From a virus (Duplodnaviria; Heunggongvirae; Uroviricota; Caudoviricetes): a stretch of 9,088 bases of DNA. Position numbers and translations under genes: made by a program. The DNA is taken from IMG/VR virus record IMGVR_UViG_2684622669_000014, one strand, 5' to 3'. The notes under the pieces are model-generated. The model worked only from the letters and a program-made list of their open reading frames with translations, had not been told where the DNA came from and did not search any database. Of this stretch, positions 1,614 to 8,682 are shown piece by piece. How positions within the stretch are numbered: position 1 is the stretch's first letter; each line of letters opens with the position of its first letter.

Positions 1614-1955
1614 GTGACCGTGAGAGCACTACTGACCCCTGAAATTGCCCCGCGTATGGGGATCGTATTGTTCAGGCCAGGTTCAGAGCTGATGCCCCTG
1701 TTTATGCAGGGGCGTGTCCTGCTGGAGCCTGAGCCGGAACGTTATTCATCTTTTGCCAGTGGTGCCGTTCCGGCTGCATCACAACCGCTGGCGGATGATC
1801 CTGCCGTTCGGGCCGTGTTCCGCAATGAGGCAGTGATCCGTCGTGCTGGTGGCGTGGAATGTCTTGAAAGCTGGTTACTTCGTGAAAAAGGCTGCCAGTG
1901 GCCTCATTCCGACTGGCACAGCGAGAACATGACCACAATGCGAAGCAACGGATAA
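1614..1955 (+). CDS. Hypothetical phage protein; possibly the N-terminal part of a YdfU/DUF968-like gene that continues in another frame
   Basis: 113-aa ORF starting with GTG immediately after the KilA-N stop. No recognisable motif. The downstream frame-1 ORF is open from 1933 and overlaps this ORF's 3' end, suggesting one gene interrupted by a frameshift. Confidence 0.5.
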   Translation: MTVRALLTPEIAPRMGIVLFRPGSELMPLFMQGRVLLEPEPERYSSFASGAVPAASQPLADDPAVRAVFRNEAVIRRAGGVECLESWLLREKGCQWPHSDWHSENMTTMRSNG

Positions 1956-1968
1956 CTGTGCCCGCTGG

Positions 1969-2529
1969 GTGTTGTCTGTTGTGCGTCGGGATCTCGGTTT
2001 TGATGACAGTCACGTTGTGACAATGCCGGAACTATGCTGGTGGCTGATTCGTAATGATCTGGCGGATGCCTTACCGGAAAGTGCAGCCCGTAAGGCACTG
2101 AGATTACCGAAGCCTTTTGTGCCGTCTGTCACCCGGGAAAGTGACCTAGTGCCTTCGGTTCCTGCCACCAGCATCATCCAGAATAAAGCGAAAAAGGTGC
2201 TGGCGCTGAAAGTGGATCCGGAGTCGCCGGACTCTTTTATGTTACGCCCAAAACGTCGCCGCTGGGTTAATGAAAAGTACACGCGATGGGTTAAGACGCA
2301 GCCGTGCGCATGTTGTGGAAAACCTGCTGATGATCCCCACCACCTGATAGGCCACGGTCAGGGTGGAATGGGGACAAAAGCGCATGACCTCTTTGTGTTG
2401 CCTTTGTGCAGAAAGCATCACGACGAGCTGCATGCGGATACTGTGGCATTCGAAGAGAAGTATGGCTCCCAGCTGGAGCTGATATTTCGTTTTATCGATC
2501 GTGCGCTGGCGATTGGTGTGCTGGCCTGA
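1969..2529 (+). CDS. YdfU/DUF968-like prophage protein with Cys/His cluster (putative zinc-binding, HNH-like)
   Basis: 186-aa ORF containing [14 protein letters not shown] ... CRKHHDELH. Sits immediately upstream of Q, as the DUF968 gene ydfU does beside the Q homolog in the K-12 Qin prophage (from memory). Start is uncertain: GTG 1969 or ATG 2027, both without a clear SD. Confidence 0.6.
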
Positions 2530-2965: not shown

Positions 2966-3022
2966 TTTAAATGTTGGAATCGCAACGTAGTTATTATCAT
3001 ATAACAGCTTGTTTCCTGATTT

Positions 3023-3051
3023 AGCCAGCCTCCCCAAAGGCTGGTTTTTTT
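3023..3051 (+). terminator. Rho-independent terminator, candidate tR' (target of Q antitermination)
   Basis: GC-rich hairpin CCAGCC(3025-3030)-loop TCCCCAAA-GGCTGG(3039-3044) followed by T-run 3045-3051. The minus-strand reading has no U-tail, so it is + oriented. Confidence 0.7.
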
Positions 3052-3079
3052 CTAATAAGTATTATTTCGGGTAGGGATT

Positions 3080-3604
3080 TTATTGTTTAACCCATAATAA
3101 TTCATTGACATTGAATCCCAACTTTTGAGCGGTTCGCACATAGTCTGCTTTTACTTTATCTGGAATAGTTGGGGTCCTTGCCAGAATCCATAGGTATTCT
3201 CTGTTCGGACCACTGACAAGAGCATACTTATACTCATCATCCAGTTTGATTACATTATAGCCACCATAGAAGGGGCCAAAAAACGAAACCTTCAACGCTG
3301 CAGTTTTAGTATCTCCAGTAAAGTATGCTTTACCTTCGCTCTCGCTCCATTTATTTTTCGTTGGATCGTATCCACGGTTAAGTACACGAATCCCTCCGTC
3401 GTTCCGTTTTCCATAAGTAGCGCTGACCTGTTCCAGACTACGTTCGAACCGGTTCTCGAGGCGAGCTATTTCATACCATTTTCCGAGGTAGCGGTTGGCG
3501 TCAAAATTTGTAATCGGCTGCACACCTTTAGGTGGTGTCGGGGCCTTACATGCTATAAGAGTGAAAGAGAGTGCAATGCCAGTCAACACAGGCCATAACT
3601 TCAT
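3080..3604 (-). CDS. Bacterial lipocalin (Blc-like) outer-membrane lipoprotein
   Basis: 174-aa ORF with a lipoprotein signal peptide and lipobox (LIAC) and lipocalin motifs close to E. coli Blc as I recall it (NFDANRYLGKWYEIARLENRFER, GKAYFTGDTKTAALKVSFFGPFYGGYNVI, YLWILARTP). Convergent with late transcription from pR'. Confidence 0.9.
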   Translation of the reverse strand: MKLWPVLTGIALSFTLIACKAPTPPKGVQPITNFDANRYLGKWYEIARLENRFERSLEQVSATYGKRNDGGIRVLNRGYDPTKNKWSESEGKAYFTGDTKTAALKVSFFGPFYGGYNVIKLDDEYKYALVSGPNREYLWILARTPTIPDKVKADYVRTAQKLGFNVNELLWVKQ

Positions 3605-3796: not shown

Positions 3797-4756
3797 ATGA
3801 TAAAAAAACCTGTGATTGGAATTAGCGGTTGTTTGGCCGGTTCTGCTGTTCGTTTTGATGGTGGTCACAAAAGAGCTGACTTTTTAATGGACAAATTAGT
3901 GGAATGGGTAACATTCAGACCAGTATGTCCGGAAATGGCTATAGGGCTGCCAGTTCCGCGTCCTGCTCTACGTCTTGTGCGCTCGACGCAAGGAAATATA
4001 CGGATGTGTTTCAGCCACGACCAGAATGAGGATGTGACAGAGAGAATGACAGAGTTTAGTCGTTCTTATATGGACAAATTAAAGGATGTATCGGGGTTTG
4101 TGGTTTGTGCTAAATCTCCCAGCTGTGGCATGGAGCGCGTGCGTGTCTATGATGAAAATGGTAATCGAGGTCGTAAAGATGGAGTGGGACTATTTACGAG
4201 CACTTTGATGGAAAAGTTTTCCTGGCTACCGGTTGAAGAGGATGGGCGATTACATGATCCAGTGCTTCGTGAGAATTTTGTTGAAAGAGTTTTTGCTTTG
4301 CATGAGCTCAATCACCTTTACAAGGAGAAATTATCAAGAAGAGAGTTATTAGCTTTTCATAGTCGTTATAAGCTTCAGTTGTTGGCGCATAGTCAGGCAG
4401 GCTATAAAGATATGGGACCATTTGTGGCTGCAATACACGAGTGGGCGGACCTTGAATCATACTTTGAGGTGTATCGTGATAAGCTGATGGCGATTCTCAG
4501 AAAACCTGCATCACGTAAAAATCACACGAATGTGCTGATGCATATACAGGGGTATTTTAGTAACTACTTAAGTACACGCCAGCGTAAAGAGTTGAGCGAG
4601 GTTATACTTAACTATCGTTCTGGCACATTACCTCTTCTTGCGCCGTTGACTCTGCTGAAGCATTATCTGGGTGAGTATCCTAATGACTACTTGCTTACAC
4701 AGAATTACTTCGATCCCTATCCGGACGAACTGGCTCTAAGACTGATGGTAAATTAA
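3797..4756 (+). CDS. DUF523-DUF1722 fusion protein (TudS-like Fe-S thiouracil-desulfidase domain plus YbgA-like C-terminal domain)
   Basis: 319-aa ORF with strong SD GGGGGAGG 6 nt upstream. N-terminal domain carries the conserved cysteines expected of DUF523/TudS [4Fe-4S] proteins (GISGCLAG, PVCPE, CAKSPSCG); C-terminal half resembles DUF1722/YbgA. Mid-range GC, unlike the phage backbone. Confidence 0.85.
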   Translation: MIKKPVIGISGCLAGSAVRFDGGHKRADFLMDKLVEWVTFRPVCPEMAIGLPVPRPALRLVRSTQGNIRMCFSHDQNEDVTERMTEFSRSYMDKLKDVSGFVVCAKSPSCGMERVRVYDENGNRGRKDGVGLFTSTLMEKFSWLPVEEDGRLHDPVLRENFVERVFALHELNHLYKEKLSRRELLAFHSRYKLQLLAHSQAGYKDMGPFVAAIHEWADLESYFEVYRDKLMAILRKPASRKNHTNVLMHIQGYFSNYLSTRQRKELSEVILNYRSGTLPLLAPLTLLKHYLGEYPNDYLLTQNYFDPYPDELALRLMVN

Positions 4757-5107: not shown

Positions 5108-5839
5108 ATGCCATACATATGTTCTATCATTTTGGTGTTGAACTCGTTTGATGTCCGAATTGGTAAAGAAGATATTTTGTTTAAAAAAGGAAGTGCTGTT
5201 CTCATTGATTACAATTTAAAAGATTTTTTTTCATCAAATATAGATCATGTAATGATCGTAGATATTGAAGAGAAAACAGTTAATGATTTCTTTAAAAGCA
5301 ATACACTCTCACCTTTTTCTGTAAGAAGGTTTTATCCGGCATACTTGATGGTGGAGTGTGAAGATTTTTCATTGTTAAAGAATTTGATTGCATGCTTGAA
5401 TTGTGATGGCAGAACTGTGGATTTTGTTAGAAATCAAATATCACTTGCATGTCTTGCTATCTTATCTTCAGAGAAAATAGTGCAAAGTTTTTTATTTGGA
5501 TGTCTTAATAGTTTAGGAAGTAAAGTTAAGGCTATTATTCACACGGATATATCTGCAGCATGGAGACTTTGTGATATATCTTCAAGACTGTATTTGAGTG
5601 AAAGTCTGTTAAAAAGAAAATTAAAGCACGAAGGCTTATCATTTAGTAAGTTAATTCTTGAAGAGCGAATGGTGATGGCGGAAAGGTTATTAAGCTACAA
5701 TTTATATTCTGTTGGAAAAGTTGCTGAGATATGCGGTTATGAAAACACGTCATATTTTGTAAGTGTTTTCAGAAGATATTTTGGTGTTCCTCCCCATCAA
5801 TATTCATCAAGATTTTTTTTAGAAAAAGACATGATGTAA
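5108..5839 (+). CDS. AraC/XylS-family transcriptional regulator (Rns/GadX-like, AT-rich)
   Basis: C-terminal ~100 aa show the AraC double-HTH signature (LSFSKLILEERMVMAERLL...SVGKVAEICGYENTSYFVSVFRRYFGVPPHQY). ORF track starts at GTG 5099; I prefer ATG 5108 with SD AGGTGG at 5097-5102. Strongly AT-rich by eye, with a ~350-bp AT-rich upstream region. Confidence 0.8.
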   Translation: MPYICSIILVLNSFDVRIGKEDILFKKGSAVLIDYNLKDFFSSNIDHVMIVDIEEKTVNDFFKSNTLSPFSVRRFYPAYLMVECEDFSLLKNLIACLNCDGRTVDFVRNQISLACLAILSSEKIVQSFLFGCLNSLGSKVKAIIHTDISAAWRLCDISSRLYLSESLLKRKLKHEGLSFSKLILEERMVMAERLLSYNLYSVGKVAEICGYENTSYFVSVFRRYFGVPPHQYSSRFFLEKDMM

Positions 5840-6027: not shown

Positions 6028-6243
6028 ATGAAATCCATGGATAAGTTAACAACGGGCATTGCCTACGGCACCTCCGCAGGCAGTGCTGGCTACTGGTTTT
6101 TACAGCTGCTCGATAAAGTCACGCCCTCACAGTGGGCAGCAATAGGTGTGCTGGGTAGCTTGGTATTTGGCCTGCTGACGTACCTGACAAACCTTTATTT
6201 CAAGATTAAAGAAGATAAACGCAAGGCTGCGAGAGGTGAATAA
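6028..6243 (+). CDS. S: Phage-21-type pinholin (class II holin) with dual-start motif
   Basis: 71-aa ORF matching S21 pinholin as I recall it ([56 protein letters not shown]). SD GGAGG 6016-6020. Two in-frame starts (M1-K-S-M4: ATG 6028 and ATG 6037) consistent with antiholin/holin dual start. Stop overlaps the endolysin start. Confidence 0.9.
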
Positions 6244-6740
6244 TGCCTCCATCATTACGAAAAGCCGTTGCTGCTGCTATTGGTGGCGGAGCAATTGCTA
6301 TAGCATCAGTGTTAATCACTGGCTCAAGTGGTAACGATGGTCTGGAAGGTGTCAGCTACATACCATACAAAGATATTGTTGGTGTATGGACTGTATGTCA
6401 CGGGCATACAGGAAAAGACATCATGCCCGGTAAAACGTATACCAAAGCAGAATGCAAAGCACTCTTGAATAAAGACCTTGCCACTGTCGCCAGACAAATT
6501 AACCCGTACATCAAAGTCGATATACCGGAAACAACGCACGCCGCTCTTTACTCATTCGTTTACAACGTGGGTGCTGGCAATTTCAGAACATCGACGCTTC
6601 TTCGCAAAATAAACCAGGGCGATATCAAAGGCGCATGTGATCAGCTACGTCGCTGGACATATGCTGGCGGTAAGCAATGGAAAGGTCTCATGACTCGTCG
6701 TGAGATTGAGCGTGAAATCTGTTTGTGGGGTCAGCAATGA
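6243..6740 (+). CDS. R: SAR endolysin (phage-21 R-type lysozyme, T4 lysozyme-like fold)
   Basis: 165-aa ORF with a Gly/Ala-rich N-terminal signal-anchor-release segment ([20 protein letters not shown]) followed by a lysozyme domain. Start overlaps the holin stop (TAATG); stop overlaps the Rz start (ATGA). Confidence 0.9.
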
Positions 6741-7201
6741 ACAGAGTAACCGCGATTATCTCCGCTCTGGTTATCTGCATCATCGTCTGCCTGTCATGGG
6801 CTGTTAATCATTACCGTGATAACGCCATTACCTACAAAGCCCAGCGCGACAAAAATGCCAGAGAACTGAAGCTGGCGAACGCGGCAATTACTGACATGCA
6901 GATGCGTCAGCGTGATGTTGCTGCGCTCGATGCAAAATACACGAAGGAGTTAGCTGATGCGAAAGCTGAAAATGATGCTCTGCGTGATGATGTTGCCGCT
7001 GGTCGTCGTCGGTTGCACATCAAAGCAGTCTGTCAGTCAGTGCGTGAAGCCACCACCGCCTCCGGCGTGGATAATGCAGCCTCCCCCCGACTGGCAGACA
7101 CCGCTGAACGGGATTATTTCATCCTCAGAGAACGGCTGATGACAATGCAGAAGCAACTGGAAGGAGCACAGGAATATATCCGTACCCAGTGTATACCGTG
7201 A
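6737..7201 (+). CDS. Rz: Rz inner-membrane spanin (i-spanin), lambda-type
   Basis: ORF track starts at 6725, but ATG 6737 ([21 protein letters not shown]...) gives the canonical Rz N-terminal TM segment and an ATGA overlap with the endolysin stop. Coiled-coil-rich periplasmic domain; near-identical to lambda Rz as recalled. Confidence 0.88.
6957..7139 (+). CDS. Rz1: Rz1 outer-membrane lipoprotein spanin (o-spanin), embedded in the +1 frame of Rz
   Basis: 60-aa ORF wholly inside Rz, SD AAGGAG 6944-6949. Lipoprotein signal with lipobox LVVVGC and proline-rich mature part ([15 protein letters not shown]), as in lambda Rz1. Confidence 0.82.
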
Positions 7202-7666
7202 TGTTTTGTTATGAAGGTGTTACTGGTAACGTTAAGGTAATTTAACAAAAAGTCAGTTCCGGACTTTATAGTGTGCTCAGATCATGGCCAAAAACGATTT
7301 CTGTGATAAATATTTTGAATATTATTTACAGATAAATGAAGTTGTTCGCATGGATGGAAATATTACAATAGAGTATGAAGTATATGTCCGTATTGTATGG
7401 GCAGAGAAGGCAAAAACACGGTAATTCCTTGTGTTGCCATTATACCTGATTGGCAGAATAGTTGTTTGGTTTTGAGTATATAGTCAGCGTTTTTTGTTCA
7501 GTAATAGCTCTCTCAAAAAATAATAAAATAAGGTGATTATTTGGGTTTATTATTTGGTTTTTTTTGTGTGTTGTTTTGTTGTTTTTCTGTGATTTATTTT
7601 TTATTGTTATTTCATTAAAGGAAGGTAAATTCAGGATAGCAGTCTGTAGATAATCGGAGGTCACTT

Positions 7667-7981
7667 ATGCTACATGATCACCTGGCAGAATGTCTGGAGA
7701 AAAAAGGACTGTACCGGAGAGCAGCTGAACGATGGGCAAAAGTGATGGTACAGCTAAGTGATGACCAGAAAAGAAAAGTGGCGGCACAGAAACGAGCAGA
7801 GTGTTTGCGTAAGGCGCGCCGGACTCCGGTTTCACCGGTGAACCTGACAGAAATAAAACAAGCGGTCAACAGACTACATTCTGAGTTGGGAATGGGATTT
7901 GAAGAGCGGCGGGTATTCCGACGATATAAAGGGACAGGAGAACAGAATACGTCCGGAAACGCGCGGTCAAAAAAATGCTAA
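7667..7981 (+). CDS. PerC-family-like small transcriptional activator (Pch/PerC homolog candidate)
   Basis: 104-aa basic ORF with SD GGAGG 7656-7660. N-terminal LEKKGLYRRAAERWAKVM resembles the PerC/Pch signature as I remember it (..LE.KGLWRRAA..W..V). Preceded by a long AT/T-rich tract. Confidence 0.55.
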   Translation: MLHDHLAECLEKKGLYRRAAERWAKVMVQLSDDQKRKVAAQKRAECLRKARRTPVSPVNLTEIKQAVNRLHSELGMGFEERRVFRRYKGTGEQNTSGNARSKKC

Positions 7982-8017
7982 AAAATATCTGAGAGAGTTA
8001 TTGCCTGTTACCATAAT

Positions 8018-8047
8018 AAAAAGCGACTTTAGTGGTCGCTTTTGTGT
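8018..8047. terminator. Candidate bidirectional intrinsic terminator between the convergent PerC-like and YlcI-like genes
   Basis: Hairpin AAAAGCGAC (8019-8027) - loop TTTAGTG - GTCGCTTTT (8035-8043), flanked by an A-run upstream and T-rich tail downstream, so either strand reads stem plus U-tract. Confidence 0.45.
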
Positions 8048-8061
8048 CATATATAAGTTAT

Positions 8062-8286
8062 TTAAGTAAACCTGTCTGAACAGGTGCTCTGGTCGTGTTT
8101 GTCTTTGTTGGGTAAAAATTGAGAATATTTTTCATTAATTAATCTTCTTCTGCAGGCTTCAATAACCCACGCTGAAAAATTCCCTGAACCTTTCTGGTCA
8201 AGAGCAATATTAATTTGTTCAATCATCTGGTTTGGAAATCGGATGTTGCGGGTTGTTGTTCTTCGGGTTCTGTTCTTCGATGACAT
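8062..8286 (-). CDS. YlcI/DUF3950-like small prophage protein (putative ribbon-helix-helix type)
   Basis: 74-aa ORF on the minus strand; NIRFPNQMIEQINIALDQKGSGNFSAWVIEACRRRL matches what I recall of DLP12 YlcI, which also sits immediately upstream of the Nu1 homolog. Confidence 0.7.
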   Translation of the reverse strand: MSSKNRTRRTTTRNIRFPNQMIEQINIALDQKGSGNFSAWVIEACRRRLINEKYSQFLPNKDKHDQSTCSDRFT

Positions 8287-8459
8287 AAGGTTGCCCCATA
8301 TTCAGTGTTGCTGATTTGTATTGTCTGAAGTTGCTTTTACGTTAACTTGATGCGGATCAATTAATACGATATCTGCTGCATAATTAACTGTTTGTCGTGG
8401 TTTGATGGCTCACACACATCGTTGTGATGAGCATTATTCACATGAAATTATTATCATTT

Positions 8460-8682
8460 TTGTGGGTCCTTTCCGGCGATCCTGCAGGTTACGGGGCGGC
8501 GACCTCGCGGGTTTTCGCTATTTATGAAAATTTTCCGGTTTAAGGCGTTTCCGTTCTTCTTCGTCGTAACTTAATGTTTTTATTTAAAATACCCCCTGAA
8601 AAGAAAGGAAACGACAGGTGCTGAAAACGAACTTTTGGGCCTTTGTCGTTTCCTTTCTCTGTTTTTGGCCGTGGAATGAACA
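8460..8682 (+). other. cos site: cosN cohesive-end sequence (8494-8505) with upstream cosQ-like region and downstream cosB (R3, IHF region, R2, R1)
   Basis: GGGCGGCGACCT at 8494-8505 is the lambda 12-nt cohesive end, followed by CGCGGGTTTTCGCTATTTATGAAAATTTTCCGGTTTAAGGCGTTTCCGTTCTTCTTCG, matching the lambda left end as I recall it. R3-like CGTTTCCGTTCT at about 8546-8557; inverted pair 8604-8616 / 8644-8656 corresponds to R2/R1. Confidence 0.85.

Follow-up and report, generated by a model that had tools for sequence, protein, structure and literature searches.

A group-1 pch regulator cassette between Rz and cos in a lambda-like prophage, most likely of Escherichia albertii

The late region of a lambda-like prophage was evaluated for the regulatory gene that lies between the lysis genes and the cohesive end site. 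The prophage is represented by a stretch of 9,088 nucleotides (IMG/VR virus record IMGVR_UViG_2684622669_000014), which is called the window here and over the whole of which positions are counted. The gene, pch (7667-7981, plus strand), encodes a PerC homologue of 104 amino acids. It very probably belongs to a group-1 pch cassette of the pchA/B/C type of enterohaemorrhagic Escherichia coli (EHEC) O157:H7, namely, a self-contained moron that spans about 960 bp and fills the slot between Rz and cos in a prophage whose host is most likely Escherichia albertii. The original prediction had placed a PerC-like activator behind a T-rich tract at this site and had proposed a link between the prophage and the virulence control of its host; the observation was correct, and the interpretation was supported as essentially right. 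The locus is a textbook element that is already characterised, not a mere candidate. What is new is confined to the species of the host, the combination with this backbone and a tract that is constrained in composition yet free in sequence.

The pch gene and its cassette

A PerC-like regulator had been predicted, and the profile search proposed for it returned the Pfam family PerC (PF06069) with 148.8 bits (cut-off 22.6) and E=5.4e-44 over profile positions 1-89 of 90; a PerC-family match was found where its absence had been named as the contrary outcome. The protein was identical at all 104 residues to PchB (ECs_2182, prophage Sp11) and at 103 of the 104 residues to PchA (ECs_1091, prophage Sp4) of O157:H7 Sakai. 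Moreover, it was 100% identical to WP_001302717.1 of O55:H7. The UniRef name was 'PchABC family transcriptional regulator', and the identical protein was present on at least 1000 contigs. The features that characterise Pch were found together, i.e., a length of about 104 amino acids, near-identity to PchA/B/C and a location on a lambdoid prophage 3' of the lysis genes. Among the GTDB species representatives, close relatives were confined to two, the type strain of E. albertii (91% identity) and one Escherichia sp. (77%). Sequence searches of the PDB with Pch and with the product of the facing gene ylcI yielded no significant matches. A second protein with a PerC domain (164 amino acids) was observed among the early/replication genes of many related prophages, for example in locus L016 (2109-2603), just upstream of the position that corresponds to the left end of the window. 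The part that it had in common with Pch was only a motif of about 44 residues (LE..GLYRRAA..W).

The slot was bounded on the left by the Rz spanin gene (6737-7201, plus strand; Pfam Phage_lysis, E=1.2e-53), in which Rz1 was embedded (6957-7139; Pfam Rz1, E=3.8e-20). The landmark on the right was cosN (8494-8505, plus strand), the 12-nt cohesive end of lambda; GGGCGGCGACCT was matched exactly, and only once, in the window (chance expectation 0). The start of nu1 was located at about 8683. The location between Rz and cos that had been claimed for pch was confirmed by these landmarks. The order of the genes and sites was Q, holin, lysozyme, Rz/Rz1, pch, ylcI, cosN and nu1, which was alike in Sakai Sp4 and Sp11, and the order Rz-pch-ylcI-nu1 recurred in O55:H7, PA20, Sakai Sp4 and Sakai Sp11.

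The gene convergent with pch, ylcI (8062-8286, minus strand; 74 amino acids), was a member of the ylcI/ynfO family with DUF3950. The values were 70.6 bits (cut-off 25; E=9.6e-20) for PF13132 and 35.5 bits (cut-off 30) for the NCBIfam family NF041551 (YlcI_YnfO_N), in agreement with the convergent YlcI-like gene that had been proposed. The alignment of the family showed almost no variation over the first 49 amino acids and a hypervariable C-terminal tail. The right breakpoint of the cassette was inside ylcI; therefore, each neighbouring cassette gives YlcI another C-terminal tail. A ribbon-helix-helix DNA-binding fold was considered for YlcI, for which the Foldseek search returned no matches.

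The limits of the cassette were determined by BLAST against two collinear prophages (loci L002 and L003). The breakpoints were at 7179/7180 and 8138/8139, and the cassette of about 960 bp thus extended from 7180 to 8138. The left breakpoint was 22 nt before the Rz stop codon, and the last 22 nt or so of Rz (from 7180) were cassette DNA; the right breakpoint fell within the 3' end of the ylcI gene, and the tail of this gene (8062-8138) was also cassette DNA. Three complete E. coli genomes matched most of the window, and all of them were collinear with it. In F344 and RM14516, the annotations of both of which were examined, iss, a homologue of bor, was present on the minus strand in place of 7180-8138. 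The claim that this is the position of bor in lambda was borne out, since iss fills the same slot in the closest prophage backbones. The finding is a discrete cassette of about 960 bp that is swapped as a unit against an iss cassette at the classical bor position. With respect to the features of a moron, replacement by iss with sharp breakpoints was observed, a candidate terminator was present and the promoter was predicted only. The description of the gene as a regulatory moron linking the prophage to virulence control is favoured, at the level of sequence comparison, by the identity with PchB and by the alternation of the cassette with iss.

The distribution of the cassette was explored among bacterial genomes and phage records. 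The cassette DNA (7180-8140) was 99.7% identical to that of O55:H7 USDA5905 and 98.8% identical to that of O157:H7 PA20; of the two Sakai loci, pchA was the closer one (96.5%) and pchB the more distant one (93.1%). The DNA of the pch region (query 7202-8400) matched 1539 of the 5426 complete E. coli genomes, and the best matches were O55:H7 and O157:H7 strains. Among 50,697 deposited phage records, only two short fragments were matched by the cassette (query 7202-8061). The pch cassette was encountered almost solely in resident prophages. The exact Rz protein occurred on only 3 contigs, under the NCBI name 'lysis protein [Escherichia albertii]'; the protein is rare because it is chimeric at the cassette breakpoint. 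One of these contigs, BBWB01000055.1 of GCA_001515025.1, matched the window with a single mismatch. The KilA-N protein was too widespread to be informative on the source, and an exact 180-mer search of the GTDB species representatives gave no match. The Rz matches point to E. albertii as the most likely host, which is a LEE-carrying attaching-and-effacing species (LEE, locus of enterocyte effacement; PMC4332760).

Two other open reading frames (ORFs) between Rz and pch were evaluated and rejected. The ORF at 7284-7424 (plus strand, 46 codons), named 'unknown protein, CP-933R' and assigned to phrog_2157 (a PHROG of unknown function), is probably non-coding. It had no Shine-Dalgarno (SD) sequence and showed 7 nonsynonymous codon changes versus 1 synonymous change against the Sakai copies; its exact sequence was annotated in some records and omitted by RefSeq. 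The ORF at 7440-7664 (minus strand, 74 amino acids) matched no Pfam or PHROG family and was located in the indel-rich T tract.

Upstream tract, translation control and terminator

The region upstream of pch (7425-7666, plus strand) is the predicted regulatory region of the gene, in which candidate promoters were predicted by promoter scans. Within it, the T-rich tract (7488-7617, plus strand) contained 56% T and 78% A+T. When all 130-bp stretches were compared over the window, for which the median was 28% T and the 99.9th percentile 55%, the tract had the highest T fraction, and the A+T content of 78-79% over 130 bp was also the maximum of the window, for which the overall value was 55%. In the core of the tract (7540-7615), T and C accounted for 70% and 2.6%, respectively. 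The extreme T-richness of the original prediction was hence reproduced, and the string quoted in it was found at 7559-7608.

The conservation of the cassette was evaluated in five copies, namely, that of the window and four others. The variable columns amounted to 33% in the tract, 1% in the pch coding sequence and 4-10% in the other non-coding parts. The tract carried indels among the five copies, including a T7/T8 run-length polymorphism at 7558-7565, and it was T-rich in all of them despite the divergence in sequence. The window combined a protein of the PchB type with a tract of the pchA type, which differed little from that of the pchA locus and at many positions from that of the pchB locus. 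In the diverged pch homologues (E. albertii type strain and Escherichia sp.), the BLAST homology 5' of the ATG covered only about 70 bp (from about 7597).

Two candidate sigma-70 promoters were found in the region. The candidate TTGCCA-17-AATAGT (7434-7462) was the best match in the region and was within the top 0.1% or so of the window, and a further candidate, TTGTTA-16-TAAATT, was located at 7604-7631. Transcription from 7434-7462 would make the tract a U-rich leader, whereas transcription from 7604-7631 would make it an upstream element. In the proposed mechanism, the tract would form the upstream portion of the promoter region of pch and may act by its composition, through the binding of H-NS or an activator or through an UP-like effect, rather than by a fixed sequence; its divergence between copies would provide each copy with a separate regulatory input. 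The binding of H-NS to the tract is plausible, because the A+T content is high and because prophage virulence loci of O157 are in general bound by H-NS (PMC4764244). The chromatin immunoprecipitation (ChIP) supplement of the same study contained no data on the pch locus. A tentative extension of this mechanism is that the tract is a 'tuning' element that is constrained in composition and free in sequence. Each copy would then have a T/A-rich block of about 130 bp just upstream of a conserved core (7618-7666), diverging about 30 times faster than the gene, and its own balance between silencing by H-NS and an activator such as LrhA; in E. albertii, a pchA-type tract would drive a PchB-type protein. 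If this is true, exchange between prophages and species would bring promoters and genes into new combinations and thereby rewire the control of the LEE.

The translation signals of pch were evaluated by partition-function folding. A strong SD sequence, GGAGG (7656-7660, plus strand), was read 6 nt ahead of the ATG and was predicted to be sequestered. For transcripts that start at 7600-7640, the SD and the AUG (7656-7669) were predicted to pair with 7754-7766 (p of about 0.9), which is part of a predicted anti-SD element within the coding sequence (7754-7771, plus strand). For a transcript start at 7560, the SD was predicted to pair locally with 7673-7695, not with the anti-SD of the coding sequence. 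The translation of pchA is described as blocked by an anti-SD element in the coding sequence, which is opened by pairing of the small RNA (sRNA) DicF (PMC7769764; PMC7873438; PMC9438474). For DicF, the sequence of the single-stranded 5' end was that of the copy in Sakai Sp4, which was located with Rfam. The best duplex of DicF nucleotides 1-14 within 7425-7990 was predicted at 7755-7771 (-13.0 kcal/mol), where it overlaps the anti-SD. The folding and the predicted DicF site are consistent with the published anti-SD model and are not independent proof of it. According to the mechanism proposed, pairing of DicF at the anti-SD would free the SD and the start codon of pch. The Rfam scan of the whole window (E<=1) gave nothing in 7202-8286, and its sole match was a sub-threshold one at 3010-3053. 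A further, recently described prophage sRNA of LEE-positive strains, HnrS, is reported on other Sakai prophages, namely, Sp9, Sp10 and Sp12 (PMC13502914).

A candidate bidirectional intrinsic terminator of pch and ylcI was found by folding of both strands at 8019-8043, between the convergent stop codons. The hairpin consisted of AAAAGCGAC, a loop and GUCGCUUUU and was flanked by an A-run and a U-run; UUUUGUGU was read on one of the strands and UUUUUAUUAU on the opposite strand. The energies were -13.1 kcal/mol (z=-3.9) and -10.7 kcal/mol (z=-3.6), one per strand, relative to shuffled sequences. The core stem was only 6 bp, and the stem was invariant across four loci. A hairpin with U-runs on both strands was thus present where a shared terminator had been predicted for the two genes; as a terminator it is a modest candidate deduced from folding. 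In the interval from Rz to pch, no convincing hairpin was found (-4.4 kcal/mol, z=-0.4).

Function in the host and competing readings

The pchABC genes of lambdoid prophages are functional homologues of PerC of enteropathogenic E. coli (EPEC), and the expression of the LEE and adherence reach their full level only with them (PMC4456613; PMC4332760; PMC6265319). PchA binds to the LEE1 promoter region and lowers or remodels the occupancy of H-NS and StpA there and at effector loci, which allows the transcription of ler (PMC4764244). The claim that Pch-type regulators activate the LEE via ler is well founded in this literature on identical or near-identical proteins (PMC4456613; PMC4332760; PMC4764244). 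LrhA is described as an activator of pchA and pchB (PMC4456613; PMC13012123). Lrp/butyrate and LeuO are further upstream inputs to pch (PMC4456613; PMC4332760), as are NtrC/sigma-S (PMC10714755) and Fur (PMC4090186). The expression of group-1 pch increases with the SOS response (PMC6265319). In the present host, Pch would bind to the LEE1 promoter region and loosen the H-NS/StpA nucleoprotein complex as in O157:H7. Moreover, read-through of the late operon into pch may add expression upon prophage induction, because no convincing hairpin separates Rz from pch; such read-through from the late promoter would explain the effect of the SOS response on group-1 pch.

Several points weigh against this account of the cassette and its function. 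The predicted fold of Pch was a TPR/MIT-like helical bundle without a helix-turn-helix; hence, its contact with DNA is left unexplained. The activation of LEE1/ler by this Pch in this host rests on analogy with the O157:H7 proteins, and the presence of the LEE, dicF and lrhA in the host is putative. The DicF-pchA and LrhA-pch steps were drawn from reviews. The pairing energy of DicF is no significant gain over shuffled seeds, 55 of 500 of which (11%) equalled it. The consensus terminator scan did not call the hairpin at 8019-8043. The predicted role of the tract differs greatly between the two best sigma-70 candidates, namely, 5' leader for one and upstream element for the other. For the high-affinity motif of H-NS, TCGATAAATT, 11 matches with up to 2 mismatches were found in the window versus 12 expected, and none of them was in 7425-7666. 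Curvature was evaluated via a dinucleotide wedge model, a rough one that is indicative only. The regional mean was 12.5 degrees versus a window median of 9.6, and the end-to-end ratio was 0.94 (median 0.93). The model placed no curvature peak in the tract and did not support the proposal of curved DNA. The two top curvature peaks that this rough model predicted in the window were at 7977 (3' end of pch) and 8115 (inside ylcI), on either side of the pch-ylcI intergenic region.

The other readings of the locus concern the level at which the tract acts and the role of the protein. The tract may be part of a long U-rich 5' leader that is transcribed from 7434-7462 and acts at the level of the RNA, where it would affect the loading of Hfq or of ribosomes, the stability of the transcript or the structure into which the SD folds. 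The rank of this promoter as the best match in the region argues for a leader, and so does the predicted fold of the transcript from 7560, according to which the length of the leader would alter the folding of the SD. However, no part of the cassette is less conserved than the tract, which also has indels, the diverged homologues could be aligned by BLAST over the proximal 70 bp or so only and no Rfam family was matched; an action as leader was hence considered unlikely.

A passenger role of pch, in which the gene is silent or without a target in this host and is kept by hitch-hiking of the cassette between prophages, was judged highly improbable. In other respects, the backbone is of a kind typically found in E. 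coli lineages without the LEE and with iss in the slot, the neighbouring DUF968 gene is disrupted and the LEE of the host is deduced from the species rather than from the assembly, all of which would suit a passenger. However, the coding sequence is intact and its product is identical to the functional PchB, and the variable columns (1% in the coding sequence versus 4-33% in the flanking non-coding DNA) indicate purifying selection on pch. Furthermore, the predicted SD, anti-SD and terminator are all intact, the probable host species is LEE-positive (PMC4332760), and the close relatives of Pch among the species representatives were confined to E. albertii and one Escherichia sp. Scarcely any weight was given to the reading in which the PerC-family protein primarily regulates phage genes and the activation of the LEE is a side effect. 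It is suggested by the longer PerC-domain protein that such prophages encode among their early/replication genes, and by the PHROGs label of several PerC-like families as phage 'transcriptional activator'. The short motif shared by that protein and Pch speaks against it, as does the place of the 104-amino-acid group-1 form in a dispensable, swappable slot. The group-1 form was also essentially absent from the 50,697 phage records, compared with its matches in complete E. coli genomes, and the published regulon consists of host virulence genes (PMC4764244; PMC4456613). The group-1 pch moron with a role in host virulence control was accordingly retained as the best explanation.

Pch is a prophage-borne switch atop the cascade of the LEE and type III secretion in attaching-and-effacing pathogens, and its recognition shows that the prophage contributes virulence regulation beyond gene cargo. 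The identical PchB and a control region of the pchA type were present in what is most likely E. albertii, on a backbone that carries iss in E. coli, which provides an example of cross-species cassette exchange at the Rz-cos site. The current understanding of pch is unchanged by the finding.

Backbone genes and known systems

The remainder of the window was occupied by genes of the prophage backbone and by a first cargo block. A LexA-like gene (71-397), a RusA gene (394-783), a KilA-N gene (803-1612) and a disrupted DUF968 gene (1620-2529) were followed by the antiterminator gene Q (2547-2924). The cargo block comprised a Blc lipocalin gene (3080-3604, minus strand), a YbgA-like gene (3797-4756) and an AraC-type regulator gene (5108-5839), and the holin (6028-6243) and lysozyme (6243-6740) genes preceded Rz. 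The DUF968 gene (window 1614-2529) was split into two ORFs, 1620-1955 and 1969-2529, by a deletion of about 81 bp and a frameshift relative to the intact gene of 329 amino acids in collinear prophages (L002, L003 and L016). The split gene is a pseudogene, or else it reflects an assembly error in the draft contig; in another assembly of the same prophage, DUF968 was intact. A hairpin with a U-run was observed 3' of Q (3010-3053) and scored 28.6 bits against RF02278, below the gathering score of 50. A plain intrinsic terminator, i.e., a tR'-like site or the terminator of blc, is the most likely identity of this hairpin, rather than the RF02278 sRNA.

The AraC-type regulator was 43% identical to ECs_1087, which has the same place after Q in Sakai Sp4, and its top NCBIfam similarity was YdeO/GadX-like, far under the cut-offs. 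Psr-type AraC regulators are reported to be associated with pch on EHEC prophages (PMC10877973). According to these sequence similarities, the prophage may carry two regulators of virulence or acid resistance, namely, pch and the AraC-type gene, and would thus join pch with a YdeO/GadX-like regulator as reported for EHEC prophages. Compared with the Psr/PatE-type AraC regulators of these prophages, the gene of the window is likewise located after Q, like Sakai ECs_1087; however, it is only a distant homologue, with a putative function.

The closest known systems are PchB and PchA of O157:H7 Sakai. They occupy the same slot, directly after Rz/Rz1 and ahead of ylcI, cos and nu1, and their upstream region, SD, predicted anti-SD and candidate terminator hairpin were also found in the cassette of the window. 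Their host is E. coli, whereas that of the window is most likely E. albertii, and the backbones of Sp4 and Sp11 differ from that of the window, in which the Blc/YbgA/AraC cargo follows Q. The slot and its flanks are also those of bor of lambda and iss of E. coli prophages, and iss was present in the two closest whole-window relatives. However, bor and iss are unrelated to pch, as they are on the opposite strand and encode a lipoprotein for serum resistance, not a transcription regulator. PerC of the EPEC EAF plasmid belongs to the same Pfam family (PF06069) as the Pch of the window, and the LEE1/ler promoter is reported as the target of both (PMC4332760). The plasmid gene for PerC forms an operon with perA and perB, whereas Pch is encoded by a single prophage gene with its own regulatory region.

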